A stretch of 64,000 nucleotides of DNA, from contig JAFEAO010000006.1 of the NCBI GenBank assembly GCA_018266375.1, positions 222,930-286,929 on the forward strand. Direction: 5' to 3'. Shown here piece after piece: positions 4,063 to 54,782 of the stretch; within the stretch, counting starts at the first letter, position 1, and the number at the start of each line of letters is the position of its first letter. The DNA comes from Bdellovibrionales bacterium. Lineage in GTDB: Bacteria > Bdellovibrionota > UBA1018 > CAIMNF01. Under the pieces are notes generated by a model. That model was given only the letters and a program-made list of their open reading frames with translations, had not been told where the DNA came from and searched no databases. The position numbers and the translations under genes were made by a program.

Positions 4063-5658
4063 ATGTCCAAAACGAAGACCGAGTTCAAAACGAGATCGCA
4101 AATTCCCGTGAAGGAAACTTATACGGCTGAAGATTTGCCCTCGGATTTGAGAGTACGTCTCTCGGAACCGGGTGCTTATCCGTTCACACGGGGCGTTCAA
4201 AAAAACATGTACCGCGGTCGCCTCTGGACGATGCGCCAGTACGCGGGCTTTGGTACGGCAGAGGAATCAAACCAGCGCTATCACTATCTTCTATCGCAAG
4301 GCACGATGGGTCTATCGGTCGCATTCGACCTTCCGACTCAACTCGGGTATGACCCGGATAACGGTCGCTCGAAAGGCGAAGTCGGCAAGGTCGGCGTCTC
4401 GATTTCAACTCTCGATGAGATGCGCACGCTCTTCAAAGGGATTCCGCTCGCAAAAGTTTCGACCTCGATGACGATCAACGCGACGGCGCCGATTCTTTTG
4501 GCATTTTATGTCGCGCTTGCGGAGGAACAGGGCGCAGACATCAAGGAACTTCGCGGCACGGTTCAAAACGACGTGCTTAAGGAATACATCGCACGCGGGA
4601 ATTTTATTTATCCGCCGAAGGGTGCGCTTCGCATGATCACCAATATGTTCGATTGGTGCGCGAAGGCCACTCCGAAGTGGAATCCGATTTCGATTTCGGG
4701 TTATCACATTCGCGAAGCGGGTTCGTCAGCCGTGCAGGAACTTGCGTTCACATTCGCGAACGCGATCGCGTATGTGGAATCGGCGACGCGGGCGGGCCTG
4801 GATATCGACGCATTTGCCGGGCAGCTCTCGTTCTTTTTTAACGTTCATAACGATTTTTTCGAAGAAATCGCCAAATTTCGCGCGGCCCGCCGCATTTGGG
4901 CAAAGCTCGTGAAAGAACGTTTCAAAGCCAAAGATCCGCGCTCGATGATGCTTCGGTTTCATTCCCAAACTGCGGGTTCGACGCTTACGGCTCAGCAGCC
5001 CGAAAACAACGTCGTGCGTGTGACCTTACAAGCTCTTGCGAGCGTGATTGGCGGAACTCAGTCTTTGCATACCAACTCGTTGGATGAAGCGCTCGCGCTC
5101 CCGACCGAGAGCAGCGCGAAACTTGCGCTTCGTACTCAGCAAATCATCGCGGCCGAAACCATGGTCACTCAAACGGTCGACCCGATTGCCGGAAGTTACT
5201 TTGTCGAGAGCTTGACCACGGAGATCGAAAATAAGGTGTGGAAGTATCTCGAAGAGATCGATCGTCGCGGCGGAACCGTCCAGTGTATCGAAACAGGTTA
5301 CATTCAGACCGAAATTTTGAACGCTGCTTACCAGGATCAACGCAAGATGGACTCGGGCGAGCTCCAAGTCGTCGGCGTAAACTGCAATCAAGAAACCGGT
5401 AACGAAAAGAAACCGGAGATCCTTCGCGTTCCGCCCGAACTCGAGCAAAAAGCGGTGGAACGTATCCGCGCCTATCGCGCTAGGCGCTCGGACGGCAAAG
5501 CAAAAGAAGCATTGCGCCAATTAACTGATGGCGCGCAGGGCGATGCAAATCTCATGGGTTTGATTTACAACTCGGTTAAAAGCGAATGCACGCTCGGTGA
5601 GATTTCGGATTCGCTTCGCAAGGTTTTCGGCGAGTACCAAGAGTATTCAGGATTCTAG
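4063..5658 (+). CDS. Methylmalonyl-CoA mutase catalytic (N-terminal) subunit, no B12-binding domain
   Basis: Strong MCM catalytic-domain similarity ([52 protein letters not shown]). The protein ends after about 530 aa, without a DxHxxG cobalamin-binding module. Confidence 0.9.
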
Positions 5659-5687: not shown

Positions 5688-6815
5688 ATGAACAAATTTC
5701 GGGCTTACGCTTTTTTGATCCTCGCCAGTGTTGTAAGCAGTCCAACCTACGCGTACTACGCCACCCCGGCCGAGGATTGCTCGGACGTCGATTTGCGCAA
5801 AGATTTCCCGATGGCGATTCGCAATCAAGGGACCGTGAGTTGGTGTTACGCTCACTCGAGCGCCGACTATCTCCAATTTTATTTTAAAATTCCGACTCAG
5901 ATCTCGGCTGCCGACATCGCGATCCAGTACAACTTGCGCACCTGGCCTCGCTTGATTCGTTTCTTTTCGGGCCGGTTGTTTCCGGAAACCGGTTTTGCTC
6001 GTTCGGCGATGTACGATTCGCTTGCAAACGGCTATTGCCCGGAAGAATATTTTCCATCCGAGACTTGGTCAAAACGCTATCTCACCGGCGTTCGTGCGGG
6101 TCAACGTGAAAAGGTCCTTCTCAAGGACGCGCTTCACGATCTCGTCAACTTGAAAGGTCAAGTGCAGATGGGGTTGTACCTGACCCCGTCACAACTGCCT
6201 TACGTCTATGAGTTTAAAGGCATGACCGATGGGCAGTTCATGGATGTCGTGGCTAACTCAACGGATCGCACGCTGCCTAACAACTTGCGTGTGGCCGCAT
6301 GCCAGGATCACCGTATTCAGTATCCGAGCCGGATCAACGCGCTCGGAATGCGACTCAAGGGGCGGCACACGTTTGAACACATCAACGCCGTGCTTGATAC
6401 TCACACTCCGCTTGACGTCGATTTCTTTTACGGTTTTCTGGATAACATCGACAGCTATAAGCGCACTCTTGGCGAGTTACACAGCACCCAGCTCATGGGC
6501 CGCCGCTTTGACGTCAAGACCGAGGAATGCCAGTACCTGATTAAAAACTCTTACGGACCGGGCTGCGACGAATACGATCATCGCCATCAGTGCGAGGGTG
6601 GATATGTGTGGGTGAGCGAGAGCTCGCTTTACGGCGCGATCGTCTCTTACGTGTACGTCAGAGACGTGCTGACGGATGATTCGGGCCCGGATCTCCAGAA
6701 GCAGGAGCAGGAACCCGCTACCCCAGTTGAAATGACTGCACCATCTTTTGATGGTCGGGATGACCAATCAGCATCAGACGATCTTGCTGAGACAAAGTTG
6801 CCTGGGCTAATTTAA
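5688..6815 (+). CDS. Secreted papain-like (C1-type) cysteine peptidase
   Basis: Signal peptide (MNKFRAYAFLILASVVSSPTYA). Cys box QGTVSWCYAHS, His region LHSTQLMG, and an Asn/Trp box IKNSYGPGCDE...GGYVWV resembling papain IKNSWG...GY. Confidence 0.6.
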   Translation: MNKFRAYAFLILASVVSSPTYAYYATPAEDCSDVDLRKDFPMAIRNQGTVSWCYAHSSADYLQFYFKIPTQISAADIAIQYNLRTWPRLIRFFSGRLFPETGFARSAMYDSLANGYCPEEYFPSETWSKRYLTGVRAGQREKVLLKDALHDLVNLKGQVQMGLYLTPSQLPYVYEFKGMTDGQFMDVVANSTDRTLPNNLRVAACQDHRIQYPSRINALGMRLKGRHTFEHINAVLDTHTPLDVDFFYGFLDNIDSYKRTLGELHSTQLMGRRFDVKTEECQYLIKNSYGPGCDEYDHRHQCEGGYVWVSESSLYGAIVSYVYVRDVLTDDSGPDLQKQEQEPATPVEMTAPSFDGRDDQSASDDLAETKLPGLI

Positions 6816-7818
6816 CATCTTTGCGGATCGTTCGCGTGCGTTCGATCGACCTGCGCAGCTCGTTGACGTCGAGTCTGCCGTCGTCGATTCCTTTTCGGAT
6901 CGCATCGAGTGCGATCATCGATTGTTCTTCGGTGCGGTAGCACAGCAAATCGCAGCCGGCTTGAAGTGCGAGCACAGGCGCCTCCTCTTTACCGAAAGTG
7001 CTCGTGACCGCGCCCATTTCCATGTCGTCCGAGATGATCGCTCCTTGATACATGAGGTTGCCGCGCACGTAAGTTTTGAGGAACGTGCTGGAGAACGTGC
7101 CCGGGCGTTGCGGATCGATGTGCGGTAACATCACATGCGCGCTCATTAGATAGCGGGCTCCGGATCTCATCGCTTTATGAAACGGAACCCACTCGCGGGT
7201 TTTCAAGGTTTCAAGAGGGGTGTTGACCTCGGGGAGCGAGAGATGCGAATCGAGATGAGTGTCTCCGTGCCCAGGGAAGTGCTTGATACAGGGCTCGACT
7301 TTTTCAAGAAGGTGCCCACGCACGCTTGCGGTCGCCATTCGAGTGACCACGCCTTCTTGGCTTCCGTAAGCGCGATCGCCGATCACTGGATTTTTTGGGT
7401 TCGTGTTGATATCGCAAACCGGAGCGTAGTTGAGCTGGATACCGGCGGCGTGGAGTTCGCGTGCTTGAACCTTTGCGAGTTCGAACGCGAAATTTGGAGA
7501 CCCCTTATCGCCGACTTTGCCGGCAGGGGGTAAAATCGTAAAACCATCGCGAAAACGGGCGACGCGTCCGCCTTCTTGATCGGTTGAAACCACGAACGGC
7601 ATGCCTGAGGCAAACTGGCTCGAACGGGCGAGCGCTTGCACGTCGTCGGTGAGGGCGATGAGCTGCTCTTTTGATTCGTAGTTGTGCGCGAAGAGGATGA
7701 AGTGAGTGAAGCCCTCTTGAAGGATGTTTTTTACGGTGCCGGCTGAGAGCGTCTTTCCGGAAAATCCCGTGATGATCAGTTCGGCAGGAGAAAACTCAAG
7801 TGCGCTGGAGAGGTTCAT
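6718..7818 (-). CDS. nagZ: Beta-N-acetylhexosaminidase NagZ (glycoside hydrolase family 3)
   Basis: GH3 N-terminal domain motifs (STDQEGGRVARF, KHFPGHGDTHLDSH, IGDRAYG). About 366 aa, typical of cytoplasmic NagZ. Confidence 0.85.
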   Translation of the reverse strand: MNLSSALEFSPAELIITGFSGKTLSAGTVKNILQEGFTHFILFAHNYESKEQLIALTDDVQALARSSQFASGMPFVVSTDQEGGRVARFRDGFTILPPAGKVGDKGSPNFAFELAKVQARELHAAGIQLNYAPVCDINTNPKNPVIGDRAYGSQEGVVTRMATASVRGHLLEKVEPCIKHFPGHGDTHLDSHLSLPEVNTPLETLKTREWVPFHKAMRSGARYLMSAHVMLPHIDPQRPGTFSSTFLKTYVRGNLMYQGAIISDDMEMGAVTSTFGKEEAPVLALQAGCDLLCYRTEEQSMIALDAIRKGIDDGRLDVNELRRSIERTRTIRKDVKLAQATLSQQDRLMLIGHPDHQKMVQSFQLG

Positions 7819-43600: not shown

Positions 43601-44266
43601 ATGAAAATGGAAAATCTCTACGTTTTGCTGGGATTAGCGATGATCTCCAGCTGTGCACCTTCTTCGAAAAACACCCGCGTTGTAAAGCCGGATGCTCCGG
43701 AAAAAGCGCCAGAAATCCCGACAAAGGCCTATCCTGAGCGGGCTAAGTTTGAGGTGGAATGTAAGTACGGGGAGCAATCTTTTTCGATTGATTTCGAGTC
43801 CAAAAGCGGGGATCTCAAAAACAAGGATATGAGCGTGATCGCGAAGTTCAAAAGCGACGACGCTGACACCGAAGTTCCGCTCAAACTCGCACCCGCAACC
43901 TATCGCGCGGTCGATACGAGCGGACTGAAAAGCATCTGCGATGGCGTGCCAGCGTTTCAAATCGAAAATACCCCGCAATTCCTGTTCGTTTTTAACGTCG
44001 ATCAAAGGCCGCAGTTCCCGGAAACTTCTCTCGTGCTACTCGACGTCGCGAAAAAACGCGTGGTCAACAAGCTCGAGCACATCGGCCAACTGAAAACCAC
44101 AGATGTTCCGAAATATCAAATTATTCCAGCTCAAAACGGCTTTCAAATGCGCCTGATCCGTAACCTCGACAAAAAAACCGAGGACTGGAAATGGATTATT
44201 GTTAAAAAAGGAATGCTCACCGCTAAGTGGATGAGTGGCGGAGGCAGGAAGTCAAAAGCGTATTAA
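43601..44266 (+). CDS. Lipoprotein, hypothetical
   Basis: Lipobox LGLAMISSC. No recognisable domain. Confidence 0.5.
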   Translation: MKMENLYVLLGLAMISSCAPSSKNTRVVKPDAPEKAPEIPTKAYPERAKFEVECKYGEQSFSIDFESKSGDLKNKDMSVIAKFKSDDADTEVPLKLAPATYRAVDTSGLKSICDGVPAFQIENTPQFLFVFNVDQRPQFPETSLVLLDVAKKRVVNKLEHIGQLKTTDVPKYQIIPAQNGFQMRLIRNLDKKTEDWKWIIVKKGMLTAKWMSGGGRKSKAY

Positions 44267-45345: not shown

Positions 45346-46137
45346 ATGGAATTTCGACAGCTCATTGGATTGCTATCATTACTTGCATCATTAACGGTTC
45401 ACGCCGGTAACATAGATTACTGCATTAAAAGTTATACCAATCAGATGGAGCTTCTCGATTCGAGTGAGCAAATTCTAAGGGCGATTGAAGAGAGTGAGAG
45501 CTCAACACTACATGAGTTAGGACTCCACTTAAGGCAGGGTTTGCATTTTGCAGAATCCGAAGTATCACAAAAGTATCGAAGTACATATGAATGGGAACTT
45601 GGCAGTGCTTTCGTCAACGCCCGTGACCTCGTCAAACTTCAGAGAACCGGCGCCTCTGAGCGCGAACTTGAAGAGTTTTTGAATCTCTTTAGAACCGATA
45701 TTTATAAGAACATGGAAGCTTATCGGCAGAAGCCGGTGGCCGCGTTCGATAACGACGATCCTCGGATGCCAGCTGCAACGTTTTATAGGATTGACGGGCT
45801 TGAAACGTCCCAGATGCCTATTTTTACAGCCTGTAAGCTTGAGGGATTTCAAAGGTGGCTCGGAGGACTAGGTAAAACCGAAGTATTGGCTGTGAATCAC
45901 AGACTCCGAGTGATTGCCGAGCGAGCTCATTTGGGTACGACGAGATCAGTGACGACCGGAAAGTCTGTAGGTCTCCATGAGATTAAAATTGACGTCGGCC
46001 CAGGTTTAAGAATCTACTACATACAAAGAAACAACTCGTTCGTGATCATGTTTTACGGCGACAAAGGCTCACAAGATTCTGATATCCGCAAAGCGGTGAT
46101 TAACGCATCCGCGTTTCTTGCCATGCAGTCTCAGTAA
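45346..46137 (+). CDS. Protein with a C-terminal Gp49/HigB-like (RelE/ParE superfamily) toxin domain and a signal-peptide-like N-terminus
   Basis: The C-terminal about 105 aa (GLHEIKIDVGPGLRIYYIQRNNSFVIMFYGDKGSQDSDIRKA) match the Gp49/HigB addiction-module killer pattern. The N-terminus MEFRQLIGLLSLLASLTVHA is hydrophobic. An internal Met at 45814 would give a 107-aa standalone toxin. Confidence 0.5.
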   Translation: MEFRQLIGLLSLLASLTVHAGNIDYCIKSYTNQMELLDSSEQILRAIEESESSTLHELGLHLRQGLHFAESEVSQKYRSTYEWELGSAFVNARDLVKLQRTGASERELEEFLNLFRTDIYKNMEAYRQKPVAAFDNDDPRMPAATFYRIDGLETSQMPIFTACKLEGFQRWLGGLGKTEVLAVNHRLRVIAERAHLGTTRSVTTGKSVGLHEIKIDVGPGLRIYYIQRNNSFVIMFYGDKGSQDSDIRKAVINASAFLAMQSQ

Positions 46138-46138
46138 C

Positions 46139-46750
46139 TTAAGCTTTATCCGGACTGCCGGCTTTCATGCGGATGATGTACTTCGAGATCATCTGATCGT
46201 TCGGGAGTTTCAAGCGCTTCGCGATTTGCTGTAAGAAGCCGCGGCAGTACACGACCGCCGGGAGTTTTTTGTAGTCTTCGTCCTCGATCGCTTGGAGGTA
46301 AGCTTTCGAGATACGGGTGAAATCAGCCAAGTCCTCGAGCGTGATCTTGCGCGCTTCACGAATCCGGCGAATCGCGGAACCGCTCCAGTCTTGCTCGCTC
46401 TCGACCAGAAGTTCGACGTCCGATGAATCGTTCGATATTGACGACACGGTCGACGAGTAAGTCGGCATCGGAGTAGTGTATGCTCTGCCTTGATGAGTGA
46501 GACCTTGTGATGAATCGTAAGTCTTGCGCTTTTCAGGGTTCGAGAGAGTAAGGTAAGCATTTTCGATGCGCTGGAGCATCTGATCCGTTTCTTCGCGAGA
46601 GAAGAGGGTGTAGTGAGCGATGCTTTCCTTGTTGTACGCCGATTTCAGGCGCAGGTAGGCCGAGCGGATTTCTTGCGGGGTCGCATCCGGTGTCAGTTCA
46701 AGGGTGTCGTAAAGGCTAGATGGATCGTCATTCAAGTTCACTGCTAACAA
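46139..46750 (-). CDS. J-domain protein with a C-terminal RodZ-like HTH (HTH_25)
   Basis: N-terminal J domain (YDTLELTPDATPQEIRSAYLRLKSAYNKES...KRKTYD, HPD replaced by NKE). C-terminal XRE/RodZ-type HTH (ITLEDLADFTRISKAYLQAIEDEDYKKLPAVVYCRGFL). Confidence 0.6.
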   Translation of the reverse strand: MLAVNLNDDPSSLYDTLELTPDATPQEIRSAYLRLKSAYNKESIAHYTLFSREETDQMLQRIENAYLTLSNPEKRKTYDSSQGLTHQGRAYTTPMPTYSSTVSSISNDSSDVELLVESEQDWSGSAIRRIREARKITLEDLADFTRISKAYLQAIEDEDYKKLPAVVYCRGFLQQIAKRLKLPNDQMISKYIIRMKAGSPDKA

Positions 46751-46762
46751 AATTTTATCGAA

Positions 46763-47794
46763 TTACTCGTTCAACGTCTGTTCAATTCTCGCATGTTTAA
46801 GCAGATAATTGCAGATGCGATCCACATGCGTGGCAATCCGCGATTGAGGATGCTCTGCCAAGAACGGGCGCATTTTGCGAACCGACTGCCAAACATTTGG
46901 CTCATATTCAAGATAACCCAGGTAGTCGAGATCGATTCCGAAGTATTTTTTTGCGACGCTCTTCATCGAAAAGCCGACGTCAATGTCGGTTTGCGAGCGA
47001 GTTTGGTTCAAAACGAGCTTCGGTTTGAAGTCCTTTATTGAACGCTTGAGCTCGCCAGCGAGCTCGGGATTCTGGAAATTTACTTCGTTTAAGAGGTCCG
47101 AGGGCGATTGAATGCCGAGTTGGTTGTTCGGGATCATTGCCGCTTCAATCATTGGCTGAATGGATTCAAAGCGAGAATTCGAGTGGAGGCGGTGATAGTA
47201 AACCGCTTTCAAGAATCGATAGGCGTTTTCAATCGAGGTGGGTTCCGGAAGTACGGTTACGATACCGACTTGAGCGATATTGAAAAAGTCGAGAGTGTAC
47301 TGGCTGGTGCCGGCGCCGAGATCGAGAATGATAAACTGAGCCGGAAGACCCCGGATCTGATTGATCAGCATTTTCTTTTTTTCTTCGGTGATTTGAGTGA
47401 TTTTCAAATCGTCTTTAGCTCCGCCGATCATTTTAAGATTTGGATACTGAGTGTCAACGATGCATTCGACGAGATCGACTACGTTGCCGCTCAGGAAATC
47501 GGAGACGCACTTTTTAGGGGGAGTCTGTCCGAGAACGGTGTGGAGATTTGCGCCTCCCAAGTCCAGATCGATCGCGATCGTTGTGAACCCGTGTTTTGCT
47601 AGATCAAACGCGAGCGATGAGGAGACCAAAGATTTGCCAACGCCGCCTTTTCCGCCCCCAATTGCCCAAATTTGTTTTTGAAACTGATGTCCCCGATATT
47701 GCGAGTGCAAAGATGCCCAAATCCCTTTATTTTCCGACGTGTTGGTGTTTGTTTCCATCCTAGAAACCCCTATATAAATAGCGTAAGTTAGCAT
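46763..47794 (-). CDS. MinD/ParA/FlhG-family P-loop ATPase
   Basis: Deviant Walker A IGGGKGGVGKS, Walker B ILDLGAG. Confidence 0.7.
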   Translation of the reverse strand: MLTYAIYIGVSRMETNTNTSENKGIWASLHSQYRGHQFQKQIWAIGGGKGGVGKSLVSSSLAFDLAKHGFTTIAIDLDLGGANLHTVLGQTPPKKCVSDFLSGNVVDLVECIVDTQYPNLKMIGGAKDDLKITQITEEKKKMLINQIRGLPAQFIILDLGAGTSQYTLDFFNIAQVGIVTVLPEPTSIENAYRFLKAVYYHRLHSNSRFESIQPMIEAAMIPNNQLGIQSPSDLLNEVNFQNPELAGELKRSIKDFKPKLVLNQTRSQTDIDVGFSMKSVAKKYFGIDLDYLGYLEYEPNVWQSVRKMRPFLAEHPQSRIATHVDRICNYLLKHARIEQTLNE

Positions 47795-47838
47795 GCGTTA
47801 TTGTCAAGGGAGAAGCCTCTGGTATACTGAGTCTAAAC

Positions 47839-48498
47839 ATGGAAGAAAACCAACAACCGCCAACGGCTTGGCGTCTGCGCCTTCGCAACGATTTGCACCT
47901 GATGCGCAAAGCTTGGCACTGCTGCATGGGCTTGTTCATGGCGTTTGTCTATTTGATCGGCACGCCGAAAGTCGTTTGCGTGCTGCTCCTGATCGCGGGA
48001 CTCGCGTTTTTCCTGACGGCTGAATACGCACGTCTCAAATTTCCGAAAGTAAACCAGTTCGCGATCAAAGTGATGGGCCCGCTCATGCGTAAGAGCGAGG
48101 TCAACAAGATCAGCGGCACTCCGTTTTATGTCGGCTCAGTACTTTTGTCGGTCATCATCTTTCCGAAATCGATCGCCATCCTCTCGATTCTTTTTTTGGC
48201 GATCGGTGATCCGATCTCATCCGTATTCGGGATCCAGTATGGCGACCTCGGACCGAGGTTTGCGAACGGCAAGTCCCTGATCGGCACGGCGGCGGGGATG
48301 GGCGTGTGCTCGCTCATTACGTTCGTATACTTCATGTGGACCAACAACTCCGCCGGCTCATCGGCTTTGATCGCGATCATGGGCGGAATCGCCGGTGGCG
48401 GTGCCGAGATGATCCCGCTCGATATCGATGACAACTTTTCTATCCCGCTCGTGAGCGGTCTTGCCCTGTGGGTTACGTACCTCTTCGTCGGGATCTAA
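47839..48498 (+). CDS. Polytopic membrane protein, CTP-dependent polyprenol/dolichol kinase or CdsA-like family
   Basis: Six to seven TM helices. GKSLIGTAAGMG and IAGGGAEMIPLDIDDN motifs resembling the CTP_transf_1/DUF92 family. Confidence 0.4.
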   Translation: MEENQQPPTAWRLRLRNDLHLMRKAWHCCMGLFMAFVYLIGTPKVVCVLLLIAGLAFFLTAEYARLKFPKVNQFAIKVMGPLMRKSEVNKISGTPFYVGSVLLSVIIFPKSIAILSILFLAIGDPISSVFGIQYGDLGPRFANGKSLIGTAAGMGVCSLITFVYFMWTNNSAGSSALIAIMGGIAGGGAEMIPLDIDDNFSIPLVSGLALWVTYLFVGI

Positions 48499-48501
48499 AG
48501 C

Positions 48502-50514
48502 ATGAACCTCCTGAAACAAACGGCGTTGGTCTTGGGTTTGGTGAGTCTGAGTCTCGGTGGCTGGGCGCTTTTTAAGAACTGGCGCCAGAAGCTCGCCATC
48601 CTTTATTCGATCCTGTGCTTTACCGTCGCGGGCTGGGCGCTGAGCTTTGTTTCGTACGCAACGCTCATGGGCCGCATCTCCAAGGACATCCACTGGATCT
48701 TCAACATCTGGCTCGCGCCGATCGGCGTGTTGATCGTGTCTAAAATTTTGTCCGCCCGGGACAAGTGGGGAAAGTGGTTTTTCCGGGTCAGCCTCATCGG
48801 CGCGGTTCCGCTCAGTCTCTCGATCATGTTTTCGATTCATGCAATTACGGACGAGGACTGGTTTTGGGTGCTCGTCCGTTTTTGGCCGACGTTCATTTTA
48901 ATGGAATTTATCCATGTCCTGATCGCCGATCTCATCAAGCATCAACCGGTCGACATCGACTTTATTTCGACCAAAAAACGCCGTTGGCTCTATGGGGGTT
49001 TGGTCGTGAGTCTTGCGAGTTGCTCGTTTGACCACATCCCGAACATGGGCTACCTCGTCCCTTCGATCGGAAACCTCGCGTTCGCCGCTTATCTCGCGTT
49101 TGCAAGCCAGGTGATGAGTCCGCAAAAGATCCTCGGGATCGAAGCGCTCTTATCGCGCTTTTTCGCGGTGGTGATTTTATCGCTCGTCATTACCGGGTAC
49201 TTCGCGCTTTTGTACCAGTACATGAGCGAGACCTTCGGGTTGTTCGTGCTTAACTCATTTTTGATTTCTTTTTCGGTACTGGCGCTTTGGAGCCCGCTCG
49301 TGACTTTGTTTAGGATCATCGCCCGGCGTTTGTTTCGGAGCGAGAGCGAGATGCGCAAGGCTCAGGTCGAGAGTTTCAAGCTCGGGATCAGCGGCGTGAC
49401 CTCGCTCGTGGAACTCGGCTATCTTCTTGAAGGTTTTTTCAGGCAGGCGATGAAATCCAAGGAGCCGCGTCTTGAATTTGATTTGGCCGGCGTGCGATTG
49501 CCGGATTCGGTCAAAAATTTTTTTACGAGGCTTGAAGACCGATGGGAGACGCCGCTTTTGCACCGGGCACTCGTGCAGATGGAACGTGACCAAGTCCTTA
49601 CCCACGAGCGTCGCCACGAACTCGATTTGCTTTTGCAATATCTCGATCACTACCGGTGCGATCTGATTTTCCCGGTCTTTGCCGACAAAAAGGTCATTGC
49701 GCTCGTCCGGGTAGAATTCCTCACTTCGGTGGATGAGTGGACGGTGAGCCTGAGTTTTTACGCGTTGGTCGCGCAAGCGCTTCAGGCACTCGGGCCCGCG
49801 CTTCAGCGGATCGCTCAAGTCGAGAGCACGCTCGAAAAGGATCGTCTCGCGCTCATGGGTGAGATGGCGGCGGGCTTAGCACACGAGATCCGGAACCCGC
49901 TAGGTGCCATCAAGGGCGCCACCGAACTCATGATCCAGCAAGAAGGTCAGCAGAAAGACGGCACTTGGACCAAAGTGATTCAAGAAGAGGTCGAACGCCT
50001 CAATCGCCTTGTCTCGCAGTTCCTGGATTTCTCTCACTCGAATCCCGAGAATCCCGAAACCGTAAATTTGTACGAACTCGCCTCGCGTGTGATCGATAGT
50101 TTCAAACCGAGTTTACCGAAGACGGCAACGCTTGAGCTGATCCCGCCGAGCGAAACCATTCAAGCGATGATCGCGCCCGATCAGATCCAGCAGGTGCTTC
50201 TCAATCTTCTGCAAAATGCCTTGAAAGCAACCGACGGGCGTTCGGAGACAAAAATCCAAGTCCAATTGTTTCAAACTGGATTCATGGTGTCAGACAACGG
50301 CGTCGGCATGAGCGAAGACACGCTTGCCCGCGTCTTCCAGCCGTTCTTCAGCAGTTTCCGTACCGGAAGCGGCCTCGGACTCTCTATTTGCCAGCGCCTT
50401 GTCGCTTCTAATGACGGATCGATCCAAATTCAGTCTCGACTGGGCGAGGGCACCACGGTAAAAGTAAATCTATGCGAGACAAGATCCTCCTTATTGATGA
50501 CGAGCCGAACCTAA
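48502..50514 (+). CDS. Membrane sensor histidine kinase
   Basis: At least eight N-terminal TM helices. HisKA H-box MGEMAAGLAHEIRNPLGAIKG. HATPase_c (N, G1, G2 boxes: NLLQNALKAT, DNGVGM, GSGLGLSI). Confidence 0.85.
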   Translation: MNLLKQTALVLGLVSLSLGGWALFKNWRQKLAILYSILCFTVAGWALSFVSYATLMGRISKDIHWIFNIWLAPIGVLIVSKILSARDKWGKWFFRVSLIGAVPLSLSIMFSIHAITDEDWFWVLVRFWPTFILMEFIHVLIADLIKHQPVDIDFISTKKRRWLYGGLVVSLASCSFDHIPNMGYLVPSIGNLAFAAYLAFASQVMSPQKILGIEALLSRFFAVVILSLVITGYFALLYQYMSETFGLFVLNSFLISFSVLALWSPLVTLFRIIARRLFRSESEMRKAQVESFKLGISGVTSLVELGYLLEGFFRQAMKSKEPRLEFDLAGVRLPDSVKNFFTRLEDRWETPLLHRALVQMERDQVLTHERRHELDLLLQYLDHYRCDLIFPVFADKKVIALVRVEFLTSVDEWTVSLSFYALVAQALQALGPALQRIAQVESTLEKDRLALMGEMAAGLAHEIRNPLGAIKGATELMIQQEGQQKDGTWTKVIQEEVERLNRLVSQFLDFSHSNPENPETVNLYELASRVIDSFKPSLPKTATLELIPPSETIQAMIAPDQIQQVLLNLLQNALKATDGRSETKIQVQLFQTGFMVSDNGVGMSEDTLARVFQPFFSSFRTGSGLGLSICQRLVASNDGSIQIQSRLGEGTTVKVNLCETRSSLLMTSRT

Positions 50515-51659
50515 GAATGATCTTATCTGCGATGCTCGAGCGCGAAGACTTTCAGGTCTTTGCGTTTGAAGGATTCAGCGCCGCCAAATCGACGCTCAAC
50601 AATGAAGACATCGATGTCGTTCTGACCGATCTTGCCATGCCTGAAGTGACGGGTATGGACGTGCTTAAGTATTGCCAAGAGTATTCGCCCGATCTTCCGG
50701 TGATTATGATCACCGCATTCGGTACGATCGAGGCCGCCGTTGCCGCGCTCAAAAACGGCGCGTTCGATTTTGTACTCAAGCCTTTCGATCAAGAAGAACT
50801 CTTGCGTAGTATCCGCAAAGCGATTCAAAGCCGCAAACGCCGCAAGCGCGAGCCCGCGCTCGAGATGATGACGGCGGTCGGGGTGGGGCCGGTCGCGTTC
50901 CCTCTCTTCGGGGACGAGGCCGAGACCATGAAGCTTCGCGTGGCGGTCAGTCGTTTCTCGAAAACAAACAGTAACATCATGATGCTCGGCGAAGTGGGGA
51001 CGGGTAAGCGGAGTATTGCGTACGAGATCCACCGCAGGTCCGATCGCGCACGCGGTCCGTTCATTCAGATTCAAGCGGATGCGATCCCCGAAGTGTTTCA
51101 AAAATCCGAGCTCTTTGGAGTGGAGAAGGGCGCCTTGCCGATGGCACTGTTTTCAAAACCCGGTGCGATGGAACTCGCGCAAGGCGGGACACTATTGATC
51201 GAAGAGGCGGGTGCTCTCGGGGTAGAAACGCAGAACGCGCTCTTCACGGCGATGCAGGATGAGTGTTTTTCGCGTATTGGTGGCGCAAAGAGGTTTCCGC
51301 TCGATTTCCGTTTGGTTGTTACTACCTCTAAGGATTTAGGCAAGATGGTCAAAGACGGAAAGTTTCATGTCGAGCTCGAGTATAAGCTGACGACTGAGAC
51401 CATCGCTCTAAAACCGCTTCGGGAGCGCCAGCAGGATCTAGCCAAGCAGTTGGCACCGTATTTTATTACCCGCTCATGTCATCGTCGCGGCATTCCAATG
51501 CTTGAAACCGAGCCCGAGGCACTCGAGTGGCTGACAATCCAGCCCTGGCCGGGGAACTTGGGCGAACTCGAACGCAAGATCGAGCAAGCGATCAACACGG
51601 CTCACGCTCGGGGTTCGCGTAAACTTCAGGTTCGCGACCTCGCCAACCGGACAAATTAG
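50472..51659 (+). CDS. NtrC-family response regulator (REC plus degenerate sigma-54-interaction AAA+ domain, no DNA-binding HTH)
   Basis: REC with Asp (VVLTDLAMPE). Walker A GEVGTGKRS. The GAFTGA loop is replaced by GALPMA. Walker B is LLIEE. The protein ends after the AAA+ domain without an HTH. 43-nt overlap with the kinase gene. Confidence 0.75.
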   Translation: MRDKILLIDDEPNLRMILSAMLEREDFQVFAFEGFSAAKSTLNNEDIDVVLTDLAMPEVTGMDVLKYCQEYSPDLPVIMITAFGTIEAAVAALKNGAFDFVLKPFDQEELLRSIRKAIQSRKRRKREPALEMMTAVGVGPVAFPLFGDEAETMKLRVAVSRFSKTNSNIMMLGEVGTGKRSIAYEIHRRSDRARGPFIQIQADAIPEVFQKSELFGVEKGALPMALFSKPGAMELAQGGTLLIEEAGALGVETQNALFTAMQDECFSRIGGAKRFPLDFRLVVTTSKDLGKMVKDGKFHVELEYKLTTETIALKPLRERQQDLAKQLAPYFITRSCHRRGIPMLETEPEALEWLTIQPWPGNLGELERKIEQAINTAHARGSRKLQVRDLANRTN

Positions 51660-51679: not shown

Positions 51680-52885
51680 CTAGTTATAGGGCCGCTGATC
51701 ACCAGATACGTCAACGATCTGGTGGGAGATTGGAATTCCGGCGGTATCCATCTCAATGATTAAGGCGTTCCGTTTGGTATGAGGATTGCCGAATGACAGC
51801 ACTGCCAACAGAGGCACTTTCGCCACTAGATCCGCAGTAAATTCGTTTCCGGCGATTTCGACTTTGACTGAAGCTCTATTCGTTCCAACGGTTCCACCCG
51901 CAAGTATTGGATCAACCACTTCGATTTGCAACCGACGTAGTACACCTGCCTGATCGAATTGTGCAATGTAATAGATGCCGTCATATCTGCGTTTTTTTGA
52001 TGATCCGACCATAGAAAGTCTAGCTGGGTTAATACTTCCGAGCCGGAAGGCTATGCTATCATCCAACATGCCGGTAAGTTTCGCAGTAGTCACGCCATTT
52101 TCATACCTTACGCTGCCGCCGCTATAAAAACGCCGCGACGTGGAATAATTAACCGGATAACCCCAATACTGAAATCTCAAATTCTCCTTCACTAATTGCG
52201 CGAATTCTTTGAAACTCAACCCGTCGAATTGAGTCGAACTGATAGCGCGGTTGAACTCACGCACGCCATCTGAATTCGTCGCATCCAGTTCGGCCTCGAG
52301 ATTGTAGATTGCTTCGTGAAGTCTGAGTCCCGCACGATCCCGATCAGACAACAGATCATAAAATTGCTGAACGAAAATGTACTTGTAATTATTCATGCCA
52401 ACCTTAACCCGATTGAAGGCCGCTTGGCGAGGTACACAATCTTCGCTCGGAGGATCAACTAATTCCTTGGCATCTGGAATCAACGCCAACATGTATCCAT
52501 CTTTGTCCAAATCGATAAACTTTTCCTGGCTTGCGATTTCGGTCAACTTATTGCGGATTTTGTCTGCAAAGTAAGGCGTTTTTTTGTAAAGTCGGTTAAG
52601 TGCGAGGTCGATCATTGTTTGCGTATCATCAACGCCGGGAGAATCGGGACCCAGATCGATGGTCCAAGAAGAAAGAACCCGAGCCTCCTCATAATCGACA
52701 AGTTTAGCTGAAATCGGTTTCCTTTTGCCTGTGAGGGGGTCTTTCGGACCGTAGCACACGAAGGCTCGTCCGCCGTGGCCATCACGACCACTTTGAGCAA
52801 AGGCTGGATTTGTCGACAGGACACTTAAAGAGATCAGGCAGCCGATTAAATAGAACTTGGTTTTACCTGGTTTTGGGGGTTTCAT
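51680..52885 (-). CDS. Secreted hypothetical protein
   Basis: Signal peptide (YLIGCLISLSVLSTNPAFAQ). No recognisable domain. Confidence 0.5.
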   Translation of the reverse strand: MKPPKPGKTKFYLIGCLISLSVLSTNPAFAQSGRDGHGGRAFVCYGPKDPLTGKRKPISAKLVDYEEARVLSSWTIDLGPDSPGVDDTQTMIDLALNRLYKKTPYFADKIRNKLTEIASQEKFIDLDKDGYMLALIPDAKELVDPPSEDCVPRQAAFNRVKVGMNNYKYIFVQQFYDLLSDRDRAGLRLHEAIYNLEAELDATNSDGVREFNRAISSTQFDGLSFKEFAQLVKENLRFQYWGYPVNYSTSRRFYSGGSVRYENGVTTAKLTGMLDDSIAFRLGSINPARLSMVGSSKKRRYDGIYYIAQFDQAGVLRRLQIEVVDPILAGGTVGTNRASVKVEIAGNEFTADLVAKVPLLAVLSFGNPHTKRNALIIEMDTAGIPISHQIVDVSGDQRPYN

Positions 52886-53726
52886 CTAATACTCCTTGGG
52901 TTAATGGAAAAAGGGAAACGGTGAGGGCATAGACAGAGTCCAATGACGATGCGCTCTCAACATTGAGGATTTGGTTCATTTTTTTCTGGAAATCGGCGAT
53001 CACCTTTTTAACTTCCGGAATCTTCTTTGAGTCTACCGCCATGGTTGTCGACGTCTGACTCCGTTTGTGGAACGGGACTTCTTCGATAGCCAGAAGAGCC
53101 TTTTCTAAGAGTTGACGCTGCATATTCCTAAAAGCGGAAGCCGTGAACGGATTGGAAAGCGTGGTTGAATACCCGCCGGTTAAGTCTCTCCACGATCCAT
53201 CCTGAAGAACTTCCAGCATTTCGAGCCTCACTAGGCGCTCGATCGCAATTTGTACTTCTGTCGAGGTTATCCCCAAAATCCGAGCCACCTTTGATGGATT
53301 GGGATCAAAATCAGGAAGCCTGCAAAGCTCCATGATCGCGTAGTGGTACCAATCTGAGATTACTTGGAAAGCGTCCAGAGTGAGTTGCTGATATTGGATG
53401 TCAGTCGAGTCGACGGGGCCTGCTTTCAAGCGAGCGTTTTTACGTGGTGAGGCTTTTTCGAATTGGGCGATTTGGTTTGGGCTGAGACCGATCTTTAATC
53501 CAAGCTTTTGGATCAATTGCTTTCGAAGGGGCCGCTGCCCTTTCATTACTTTTGCCAAAGTAGATTTATCCATTCCGAGAGCTTTAGCAAAAGCACTTAA
53601 CGAGTACCGTTCGTTTTTGCGGCATCGCTTTAGAAACTCATGCTGCAGGTAAATCCGGAAGTCAGCAATGCTGTCGGTGCCTGGCTCTGAAGCTTGCGGA
53701 GGTGGAAATAATTTTTGTATAAACAT
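52863..53726 (-). CDS. TIGR02147/DUF4423-family HTH regulator
   Basis: N-terminal pattern RIYLQHEFLKRCRKNERYSLSAFAKALGMDKSTLAKVMKGQR characteristic of this family. Start trimmed to MFIQKL (the ORF track extends to 53777). Confidence 0.55.
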   Translation of the reverse strand: MFIQKLFPPPQASEPGTDSIADFRIYLQHEFLKRCRKNERYSLSAFAKALGMDKSTLAKVMKGQRPLRKQLIQKLGLKIGLSPNQIAQFEKASPRKNARLKAGPVDSTDIQYQQLTLDAFQVISDWYHYAIMELCRLPDFDPNPSKVARILGITSTEVQIAIERLVRLEMLEVLQDGSWRDLTGGYSTTLSNPFTASAFRNMQRQLLEKALLAIEEVPFHKRSQTSTTMAVDSKKIPEVKKVIADFQKKMNQILNVESASSLDSVYALTVSLFPLTQGVLDETPKTR

Positions 53727-53840
53727 GACAGACGCGAGAATAACGCGTTGTATTATAAATTGCAACATTTTGCCCATTATTCGTGGTCAAAAATAACAAT
53801 TATATTACAAATAGTTATGTTAACTGTTTAAGTTTTGCCC

Positions 53841-54782
53841 TCATTGATTTTTATCGGGGGCTCTCCGCGACTTCGCGATTTCAATCCGTCCGGCCGAGTC
53901 TTGGGTTAAATTTCCCGTTTCAAATTCGAGTTCGAGTTCGGCGTAAAACGCGCTTAGGCTCATGCCTTTGCCGGTTGCAAGGTTCATCAGCGTTTGAAGA
54001 TGGCACGCACCGAATTCATTTTTGAGCTCCAAGACCCAAGTTTGAGCTTTTGAGAGCGCCGTCTTTGAAGCCGACAGTCCAAGTTCCGGATTCCCGGATA
54101 AGAATTTCCACGAGGTGGCAAGGCTCTGCACGTCAAATAACGGGTCCGCGATTGGGTACCGGTTAGTGTCTTTTTTGCTCAGCAGTTTTTGGTTCCCTTT
54201 AAAGAAGTGGTCGCTCGGAAAACACGAGGTCGCGTAGAGGTCCCGGTTGAGTTCCATTGCGTGTTTTGCGGTGTTTAAGGTGCCGGAAACTTCGGCCGCT
54301 TCGACGACCCAGGTGGCTTTGGCGAACCCCGCGATCAGACGATTGCGGTCCAGAAAATTCCTTTCAAAGGCAGGTGTATGGTTCTCAAAGTGAGACACCA
54401 TCATTCCGCCGCTTTCCAGGATTTTTCGGCGTAACGCTCGATTCTCGCGTGGATAATCGACGTCGAGTCCGCACCCGAGCACCGCGATCGTGCGAAGCCC
54501 GTTCTCGATCGCGAGCTCGTGCGCGCGCGAATCGATGCCGCGTGCAAACCCCGAGATGATGATCAAGCCGGTTCCTTGAAGGTCCCGCAGGACCGATTCG
54601 AGAAGCTCAAACGAACGCCGCTGCGGGTACCTTGTGCCCACGATGGCAAGCCCGTTCTCCGGAAGTCGTTCGAACAACTTCGCCGGATCGTCCGGAGATC
54701 GGACTCGAAGCGTTTTAGCTTTGTGGTCGGTAATGGTTTTGAAGATCGGAAGTGCGTCGACGGAGTAAGTATGGTCTTGCAT
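53841..54782 (-). CDS. dprA: DNA processing protein DprA (Smf)
   Basis: Rossmann-like DprA core (AIVGTRYPQRRSFELL, IIISGFARGIDSRAHELAI, VVEAAEVSGTLNTAKHAMELNRDLYA). Confidence 0.85.
   Translation of the reverse strand: MQDHTYSVDALPIFKTITDHKAKTLRVRSPDDPAKLFERLPENGLAIVGTRYPQRRSFELLESVLRDLQGTGLIIISGFARGIDSRAHELAIENGLRTIAVLGCGLDVDYPRENRALRRKILESGGMMVSHFENHTPAFERNFLDRNRLIAGFAKATWVVEAAEVSGTLNTAKHAMELNRDLYATSCFPSDHFFKGNQKLLSKKDTNRYPIADPLFDVQSLATSWKFLSGNPELGLSASKTALSKAQTWVLELKNEFGACHLQTLMNLATGKGMSLSAFYAELELEFETGNLTQDSAGRIEIAKSRRAPDKNQ

Follow-up and report, generated by a model that had tools for sequence, protein, structure and literature searches.

An NtrC-type response regulator with degenerate AAA+ motifs and no DNA-binding domain in an uncultured lineage of Bdellovibrionales

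The regulator and its operon

The 64,000-nucleotide stretch of Bdellovibrionales bacterium DNA analysed here (referred to as the window; contig JAFEAO010000006.1 of assembly GCA_018266375.1) contains a three-gene operon whose last gene encodes an NtrC-type response regulator with an intact receiver domain, a degenerate AAA+ core and no DNA-binding domain. An earlier first-pass annotation, made from the letters and their open reading frames, had described this regulator as paired with a polytopic histidine kinase, and we found both reading frames as described, with an overlap of exactly 43 nt. The main features, with positions counted from the first nucleotide of the window, are as follows.

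47839..48498, + strand: first operon gene, 219-aa membrane protein of the putative CTP-dependent diacylglycerol/dolichol/polyprenol kinase family (source annotation)
48502..50514, + strand: cognate polytopic histidine kinase, 670 aa, with at least seven transmembrane spans, a cytoplasmic region, HisKA and HATPase_c (open reading frame, Pfam)
50472..51659, + strand: degenerate NtrC-type response regulator, 395 aa, comprising a receiver, a pseudo-AAA+ core and a lid, without a DNA-binding domain (open reading frame, Pfam, alignment to NtrC1, family conservation, AlphaFold2 model)
50484..50813, + strand: receiver domain of the regulator, residues 5-114 (Pfam, 103 bits), with D9, D10, T81 and K103 intact and the phospho-acceptor D53 encoded by nucleotides 50628-50630

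Pfam searches assigned residues 5-114 of the regulator to Response_reg (PF00072), residues 146-311 to Sigma54_activat (PF00158; 138 bits against a cut-off of 20.2), which is the AAA+ core of bacterial enhancer-binding proteins (bEBPs), and residues 317-391 to AAA_lid_14, bearing out the normal receiver and AAA+ core of the first-pass annotation. The receiver residues D9, D10, D53, T81 and K103 are invariant or nearly so in the 77 family members and 33 canonical relatives compared below. The best sequence match in a phmmer search was A. aeolicus NtrC1 (1NY5, E 8e-66). The AlphaFold2 model of the regulator had a mean predicted local distance difference test score (pLDDT) of 93.6 and was confident except in the inter-domain linker; its AAA+ domain superposed on NtrC1 (1NY6) in Foldseek with a target-normalised template modelling score of 0.95 and a root-mean-square deviation of 1.3 A.

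The helix-turn-helix (HTH) domain HTH_8 (PF02954), found at the C-terminus of Group 1 bEBPs, was not detected in the regulator by Pfam, and, as previously noted, the protein stops after the AAA+ domain; it ends four residues past the lid, giving the receiver plus AAA+ layout without a D domain that defines Group 5. Its best NCBIfam matches (AtoC, NtrC and NtrX) were far below their cut-offs and stopped at about model position 370 of 450-460, indicating that the C-terminal DNA-binding part is absent. In addition, the regulator stop codon is only 20 nt away from where a convergent gene, running on the opposite strand, terminates. The possibility of a frameshift hiding an HTH, raised in the first-pass annotation, was checked by tblastn; queries taken from the C-terminal HTH parts of three canonical orthologues gave nothing better than E=2 in any frame of the window or of 11 related loci, so the truncation is real.

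The kinase has at least seven hydrophobic spans within residues 1-262, followed by HisKA and HATPase_c domains, and its gene overlaps that of the regulator, whose predicted phosphotransfer partner it is. Its H, N, G1 and G2 boxes are intact; among the 15 loci compared, the H and G2 boxes match in all, and N or G1 is unmatched in three. From end to end, membrane part included, the protein can be aligned with the kinases beside canonical regulators (28-31% identity). Residues of about 270-445, a segment of about 175 aa between the last membrane span and HisKA, had no Pfam match; it and the likewise unassigned polytopic N-terminal sensor of about 260 aa both recur, at 28-31% identity, in the kinases that accompany canonical regulators.

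The gene of the 219-aa membrane protein is separated from the kinase gene by 3 nt. In 11 loci of the degenerate clade, the gap between these two genes ranges from -4 to 12 nt and the overlap between kinase and regulator genes from 11 to 55 nt; in the canonical lineages the lipid-kinase-like and kinase genes are 1.6-1.7 kb apart. The co-expression of kinase and regulator that the 43-nt overlap had suggested is supported by this close spacing (overlaps, or gaps no longer than 12 nt), and the upstream gene is part of the operon as well. Source annotations label homologues of the 219-aa protein variously as dolichol kinase, as diacylglycerol kinase (CTP) or as members of the diacylglycerol/polyprenol kinase family, one of them with PF01148. 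For the protein itself, no Pfam or NCBIfam match was found even at E up to 10, and a sequence search of the PDB was also empty. It has six spans and the motifs GDPxSSxxG...NGKSLIGT and EMxPLxIDDNFSIP, and seems to represent a divergent subfamily missed by current models.

Substitutions conserved across the regulator family

A protein search with the regulator yielded about 80 homologue clusters at 50-78% identity, the full-length members being about 380-400 aa long and none containing PF02954; identity fell sharply to 41% where canonical regulators of 450-490 aa with HTH_8 began. The family together with the divergent member P0086 was monophyletic in 100 of 100 neighbour-joining bootstraps, on a long stem. 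An exhaustive HMMER scan of 1.84 billion representatives recovered only three clusters at 50% identity (P0017, P0086 and P0321) and fragments, followed by canonical bEBPs, indicating that the family is narrow. All named sources were uncultured Bdellovibrionales or 'Bdellovibrio sp.' metagenome-assembled genomes, or unclassified bins. For the unsaturated pair L098 and L099 (synonymous divergence, dS, of 0.9), the ratio of nonsynonymous to synonymous substitution rates (dN/dS) was 0.064 overall, 0.017 in the receiver and 0.039 in the AAA+ domain, a sign of strong purifying selection, under which the gene is probably functional and maintained.

Motif states were read from the phmmer alignment to NtrC1 (1NY5), and conservation was counted in 77 family members versus their 33 nearest canonical relatives. 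The relevant segments, all on the + strand, are listed below.

50829..50912, + strand: family-specific linker, residues 120-147, with the polybasic SRKRRKRE followed by PALEMMTAVGVGPVAFPLFG (conserved in the family)
50988..51011, + strand: Walker A, GEVGTGKR, residues 173-180, lysine retained (GESGVGKE in NtrC1)
51129..51146, + strand: L1 loop, GALPMA, residues 220-225, opposite GAFTGA of NtrC1 (alignment to NtrC1)
51192..51206, + strand: Walker B, LLIEE, residues 241-245, opposite LFLDE of NtrC1, with D changed to E at the first acidic position
51363..51389, + strand: arginine-finger region, FHVELEYKL (R299H, D301E, R305K), opposite FREDLYYRL of NtrC1 (alignment, family counts)
51552..51569, + strand: sensor II, GNLGEL (R364G), opposite GNVREL of NtrC1

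The changes of GAFTGA to GALPMA and of Walker B to LLIEE, both pointed out in the first-pass annotation, were upheld by this alignment, there being no intact GAFTGA equivalent elsewhere, and the degeneracy goes further, to R180, S286, H299, K305 and G364. Specifically, the residue after the Walker A lysine is R180 in 76 of 77 family members, whereas it is E in all 33 canonical relatives; the L1 loop has the family consensus GA-x-P-[MVL]-x, with P223 in 75/77, whereas GAFTGA is present in 31-33 of the 33 relatives; the first acidic position of Walker B is E in 57 and D in 20 of the 77, compared with D in 32/33; and sensor II carries G364 in 74/77, compared with R in 33/33. In the finger region, H299 occurs in 74/77 and K305 in 60/77 (R in a further 10), and the asparagine of sensor I is replaced by serine (S286, 67/77). 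K305 aligns with R299 of NtrC1, which is the trans-acting arginine finger (PMC7175178). Positions 180, 223, 299, 364, 286, 305 and Walker B are occupied in the canonical relatives by E, T, R, R, N, R and D, respectively, in 29-33 of 33 sequences. Nine substitutions define the clade (E180R, L181S, K199Q, L209F, T223P, L258F, R299H, D301E and R364G), and substitutions common to 77 homologues are not due to chance.

The regulator therefore matches bEBPs in its core fold while lacking the GAFTGA contact motif and the complete hydrolysis set (Walker A GK, Walker B DE, arginine finger and sensor II R); nor does it have the intact GAFTGA and ATPase motifs of the Group 5 proteins FlgR and CtcC. The T-to-P change in GAFTGA alone has been reported to inactivate NifA (PMC4641369), which, together with the missing HTH and with the loss of the sigma-54 promoter and palindrome described below, supports the earlier proposal, and makes it very probable, that such a protein can neither activate sigma-54 promoters nor bind DNA. 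ATPase activity is likewise predicted from these residues to have been lost. Four deep members, P0075, P0077, P0086 and P0321, have no Walker A lysine (GTGARS, GAGQRM, GSGRRV and PGALLRD, respectively) and diverge further in the finger region, suggesting that nucleotide chemistry is not what selection preserves in the family; judged by these sequences, ATP binding is dispensable in that part of the clade.

The linker between receiver and AAA+ core, which is variable in the canonical orthologues, has in the family the polybasic and hydrophobic consensus SRxRRKREPALExMSAxGVGPVPxPLFG, with P128 and G139 invariant. AlphaFold2 leaves it disordered, with low confidence at residues 133-136.

Two other candidates were set aside. 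A role as c-di-GMP receptor was rejected, the residues of the FleQ site (R/N after Walker A) being absent from the regulator, which has Y-E. The single GAFSGA match, at 43710 on the - strand, falls in a non-coding frame beside a stop codon and is attributed to chance.

The orthologous locus and the exchange of its promoter

A contig search with the family alignment used receiver-domain peptides as patterns, and 77 of the 80 loci obtained were unrelated canonical bEBPs, L001-L003 being relevant. In those degenerate-clade loci with enough flanking sequence, the genes for Lon, an RluD-like protein, a DnaJ/HTH_25 protein and a MinD-family ATPase share one strand, the opposite strand carries the genes of the membrane protein (213-219 aa), the kinase and the regulator, and dprA comes next. 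Sister lineages of Bdellovibrionota, namely L003 (Bdellovibrionia), L102 (Bacteriovoracia) and L104 (Bdellovibrionales), have this neighbourhood too, and L085 and L087 share just the part with the kinase, glutamate dehydrogenase, D-Ala-D-Ala ligase (Ddl), topoisomerase I (TopA) and DprA. The regulators in these five loci are complete proteins of 452-473 aa, with GESGTGKE, GAFTGA, [FL]LDE, FREDL[FY]YRL, GNIRQL and a Fis-type HTH. The homologous kinase and the common locus context identify the degenerate protein as the positional orthologue of a canonical sigma-54 activator.

The promoters ahead of the lipid-kinase-like gene differ between the two groups of loci. In five of six sister-lineage loci, the sequence TGGCA[CT]-N5-TTGCT precedes this gene, with a perfect match to the 10-base consensus TGGCAC-N5-TTGC in L102, L103 and L104, and in all five a palindrome, [TC]GCG-N10-CGC[AG], lies 162-184 bp upstream of the sigma-54 promoter match. 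Their positions within the respective loci are as follows.

L003: palindrome 5246-5263, sigma-54 promoter 5427-5441
L102: palindrome 6776-6793, sigma-54 promoter 6959-6973
L103: palindrome 6717-6734, sigma-54 promoter 6901-6915
L104: palindrome 6718-6735, sigma-54 promoter 6891-6905
L088: palindrome about 80-97, sigma-54 promoter 242-256

As background, such sigma-54 promoter matches occurred only 27 times in 1.53 Mb, counting both strands. The palindrome and the promoter match have the geometry of an enhancer with its -24/-12 promoter, and the palindrome probably serves the HTH-bearing orthologue as an enhancer. L102 also carries TGGTAC-N5-TTGC (7742-7756), a further site close to the consensus, ahead of the gene that follows.

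Neither the sigma-54 promoter nor the palindrome was found in the 15 degenerate-clade loci scanned or in L106, which was inspected by eye; the lone exception, a relaxed-palindrome match in L096, is read as chance. TGGCA[CT]-N5-TTGC does not occur anywhere in the 64-kb window, and the operon there has instead a predicted promoter of the sigma-70 type.

47801..47828, + strand: predicted sigma-70-type promoter, TTGTCA-16-TATACT, with a TG extension, 10/12 match, 10 nt upstream of the operon (motif match)

TTGTCA-16/17-TATACT is conserved in most degenerate-clade loci, including L106, with L002, L091, L094 and L095 retaining only the -10 element TATACT. A search of the window and of some 257 kb of clade sequence, mostly from one locus, also gave no rpoN, second bEBP or sigma-54 consensus promoter.

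Two neighbouring genes serve as reference points for the locus.

46763..47794, - strand: FleN/FlhG-like MinD-family ATPase, divergent neighbour of the operon, the true start probably being the internal methionine of METN... (Pfam ParA/CbiA)
53841..54782, - strand: DprA gene, lying beyond the regulator in both degenerate and canonical loci and so a positional anchor for their orthology (Pfam DNA_processg_A)

The best solved relatives of the neighbouring ATPase are the FleN antiactivator (5J1J, 7EJW, 8P53 and 8PB9; E 2e-19), then FlhG, then MinD, and its gene adjoins the operon in every degenerate-clade locus with upstream sequence. It is paired with a gene for a J-domain plus HTH_25 (RodZ-type) protein (46139-46750, - strand), and this pair is kept beside the lipid-kinase-like gene across Bdellovibrionota, with or without a nearby kinase-regulator pair. 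The glutamate dehydrogenase and Ddl genes adjoin the kinase-regulator pair in the canonical lineages (L085 9492-15594, L087 10542-16481, L003 11370-14762, L102 13144-14639 and L104 12925-14654); in the loci where DprA falls within the stretch (L003, L085 and L087) they lie between the regulator and DprA, together with topoisomerase I in L085 and L087. All three genes are absent from the degenerate-clade locus, in which DprA directly follows the regulator except in the window. The proteins of 267-303 aa encoded after the lipid-kinase-like gene in the canonical lineages had no Pfam match.

The window has some peculiarities of its own, although its base composition in this region is unremarkable. 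Between the regulator and DprA there are two extra genes that are not in other clade loci and look like a local insertion, one for a 401-aa protein with a hydrophobic N-terminal leader and no Pfam match (51680-52885, - strand) and one for an HTH_3 plus DUF4423 protein (52863-53777, - strand), with an overlap of 23 nt. RluD is gone from its usual place, where a 263-aa open reading frame with a signal-peptide-like N-terminus and no Pfam match is found (45346-46137, + strand), suggesting a rearrangement on that side of the locus.

Interpretation and comparison with known systems

The intact kinase and receiver and the strongly constrained AAA+ shell imply that the protein still performs a function that depends on phosphorylation and on the shell. 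We consider it very likely that it is a functional, selection-maintained pseudo-enhancer-binding protein, the positional orthologue of a canonical activator, which has lost the HTH, the GAFTGA contact and the hydrolysis residues and with them both DNA binding and the activation of sigma-54 promoters. The best explanation overall, which we hold with middling confidence, is a phosphorylation-switched pseudo-ATPase adaptor derived from an NtrC-type activator. Ancestrally, the kinase would have acted through the regulator on the sigma-54 promoter, with its upstream palindrome, at the neighbouring lipid-kinase-like gene. This transcriptional link appears to have been dismantled, the lipid-kinase-like gene now lying directly ahead of the kinase and regulator behind a sigma-70-type promoter. 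The facts favour a single evolutionary event: the activator lost its HTH, sigma-54 contact and hydrolysis residues, the sigma-54 elements vanished from the promoter that was probably its target, and the target gene became the first of the operon. The receiver and its cognate kinase, predicted to be catalytically intact, have been retained.

As to the present mechanism, phosphorylation of D53 may change the conformation or oligomeric state of the AAA+ scaffold, with the re-specified L1 loop (GA-x-P-hydrophobic) and the polybasic and hydrophobic linker as the likely contact elements; a non-motor adaptor is favoured by the family-specific conservation of the L1 loop, R180 and the linker. That phospho-D53 switches the AAA+-fold scaffold in this way, with the operon products at the membrane as candidate partners, is a tentative proposal, the most likely partners being the lipid-kinase-like enzyme, the kinase, or both; control of the lipid-kinase pathway would then have passed from transcription to the protein level. 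The partner-switching module suggested in the first-pass annotation is in essence the same idea. The motif states, their conservation, the purifying selection, the orthology and the promoter exchange are observations, and the loss of ATPase activity, the target of the ancestral regulator and every partner assignment are inferred. A more specific version, in which the mechanism was exchanged and the connection kept, so that the phosphorylated regulator would bind the lipid kinase and/or the sensor via the linker and L1 and control the enzyme directly, seems doubtful; if it were true, a bEBP would have turned into a post-translational effector.

Several points weigh against the adaptor explanation and the history proposed for it. 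The Walker A lysine and the acidic Walker B pair are retained in 74 of 77 members, the window protein included, and nucleotide binding or slow hydrolysis with a lysine finger may still matter in the main clade, to which the window protein belongs. The link from the ancestral regulator to the sigma-54 promoter of the lipid-kinase-like gene is drawn solely from adjacency, and in L103 this promoter stands with no kinase-regulator pair beside it. For the lipid-kinase label the source is annotation, with no model match. The negative result for rpoN and other bEBPs comes mostly from one locus and does not show a clade without sigma-54. Finally, the degenerate clade is known solely from metagenome-assembled sequence.

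Among the other explanations, a serious alternative, though rather unlikely, is that the regulator works with the divergent FleN/FlhG-like ATPase, as its modulator or its target and not on transcription, in the way that FleN acts on the AAA+ domain and L1 loop of FleQ. The neighbour does resemble FleN more than FlhG or MinD and is adjacent in every degenerate-clade locus with upstream sequence, and the contacts of FleN dimers with the FleQ AAA+ domain extend to its L1 loop (PMC8528422). However, the same adjacency is seen with canonical regulators (L003, L102 and L104) and without a nearby pair (L103), so it may be inherited gene order. It also predates the degeneration, and L085 and L087 have the kinase-regulator pair without a FleN-like neighbour. 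Mixed bEBP rings are known, as in HrpR/HrpS and FleQ/FleT, and a phosphorylation-controlled poison or modulator subunit might join canonical rings and, lacking the finger, damp their ATPase and sigma-54 activation. The preserved AAA+ fold of the model suggests that the ring-forming surfaces may be preserved too, and the arginine finger acts in trans, so that a subunit without it would disable its neighbour's site (PMC7175178). Yet the conserved new L1 loop and linker would be needless for a pure poison, and no second bEBP, rpoN or sigma-54 promoter was seen in the window and clade sequence, which is weak evidence given that most of that sequence is the same locus; this role is distinctly unlikely. 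Regulation of sigma-70 promoters, through a DNA-binding partner such as the DnaJ/HTH_25 protein or through contact with RNA polymerase, might be expected from the sigma-70-type promoter of the operon and from the bEBPs without GAFTGA that regulate such promoters, some of them without ATP hydrolysis (10.1101/2023.06.06.543975; PMC6158489), but those proteins all retain the HTH that this family lacks and no conserved palindrome is left upstream of the operon, which makes this very unlikely. Slightly harder still to credit is a phosphate sink or kinase-buffering receiver with the AAA+ part as structural ballast. It would agree with the intact, translationally coupled receiver and kinase and with the lost catalytic output, but purifying selection is about as strong in the AAA+ domain as in the receiver (dN/dS 0.039 against 0.017), ballast would not keep the clade-specific invariant residues R180, P223, H299 and G364, and the operon encodes no second response regulator.

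The first-pass annotation had also offered a phosphorylation-regulated ATPase or a decaying pseudo-regulator. A motor with altered chemistry, using a lysine finger, an EE Walker B and R180 as a cis arginine, could account for the Walker A lysine in 74/77 members, an acidic Walker B pair in nearly all, and K305 or R at the finger position (60/77 and 10/77, respectively); it is nevertheless highly unlikely, because the first arginine of the finger region, the sensor I asparagine and, family-wide, the arginine finger and the sensor II arginine have been lost, and four divergent members without the Walker A lysine retain the remainder of the protein. An activator that works from solution like FlgR and CtcC, its variant L1 loop still engaging sigma-54, is scarcely credible. 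A receiver plus AAA+ without a DNA-binding domain is a recognised Group 5 architecture (PMC7175178), and DVUA0100, with GVATGV, is predicted to stay active (PMC4641369), but in this regulator both F and T of GAFTGA are replaced, by a change that includes the T-to-P reported to inactivate NifA (PMC4641369), the hydrolysis residues are gone, and it is precisely in the degenerate clade that another promoter has taken the place of the sigma-54 promoter at the neighbouring gene. Finally, the joint loss of many functional motifs might suggest a decaying pseudogene or a sequencing or assembly artefact, to which we give practically no chance: the reading frame is intact, about 80 homologues of equal length from independent assemblies form a monophyletic clade, dN/dS is 0.03-0.06 (about 0.04 in the AAA+ domain), the predicted fold is confident, and there is no frameshifted HTH.

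The family matters because bEBPs are treated as obligate partners of sigma-54 and the exceptions known so far, having turned to sigma-70 promoters, still bind DNA, whereas the degenerate lineage appears to have shed DNA binding, sigma-54 contact and the ATP motor while its AAA+ shell is still strongly selected. Sister lineages still show, at the corresponding locus, the canonical ancestral state and the probable sigma-54 target, making this a rare, well-polarised example of an activator turned pseudo-enzyme, although its significance is limited by the narrowness of the clade, which is uncultured. It is also a warning about automated labels: both 'sigma-54-dependent Fis family transcriptional regulator' and 'DNA-binding NtrC family response regulator' misname the proteins of this family. 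In a searchable library that was incomplete, we found no conserved bEBP derivative without GAFTGA, arginine finger, sensor II and DNA-binding domain together, and nothing specific on this regulator family in Bdellovibrio or on doubly degenerate bEBPs. PexR, considered as a parallel, is a normal sigma-54 activator and was rejected.

Compared with canonical Group 1 bEBPs (NtrC1, NtrC4 and the regulators of L003, L102, L104, L085 and L087), the regulator has the same receiver, clade-6 AAA+ domain and lid, a HisKA kinase immediately upstream and an orthologous locus, but it lacks GAFTGA, the finger-region arginines, the sensor II R, the sensor I N, the Walker B D and the HTH, and the sigma-54 promoter and palindrome are gone. 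The Group 5 proteins FlgR of H. pylori and CtcC of Chlamydia do activate sigma-54 transcription, and both GAFTGA and the ATPase motifs are intact in them, whereas this family has neither. They share with it a receiver plus AAA+ architecture ending after the lid, and phosphorylation by a cognate kinase (PMC7175178). The bEBPs without GAFTGA, namely R. capsulatus NtrC, Caulobacter NtrC, NtrX and V. cholerae VpsR, have likewise lost sigma-54 contact, and some work without ATP hydrolysis (10.1101/2023.06.06.543975; PMC6158489). Unlike the regulator, these proteins retain the HTH and are DNA-bound, and several have deletions in L1, whereas the regulator L1 keeps its length with a new conserved sequence. 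TyrR also belongs with these sigma-70-dependent relatives. The likeness to FleQ-FleN lies in the FleN/FlhG-like gene beside the operon, FleN contacting the AAA+ domain and L1 of FleQ (PMC8528422); FleQ is an active sigma-54 activator with an HTH, and the regulator has neither feature. A parallel in logic is found outside the bEBPs. In RssB, which has a pseudo-PP2C domain, and in PopA, whose GGDEF is degenerate, the intact receiver governs a catalytically inactive enzyme fold that serves as an adaptor, which is the same combination of intact receiver and pseudo-enzyme as proposed here, with an output fold that differs from the AAA+ fold of the regulator.

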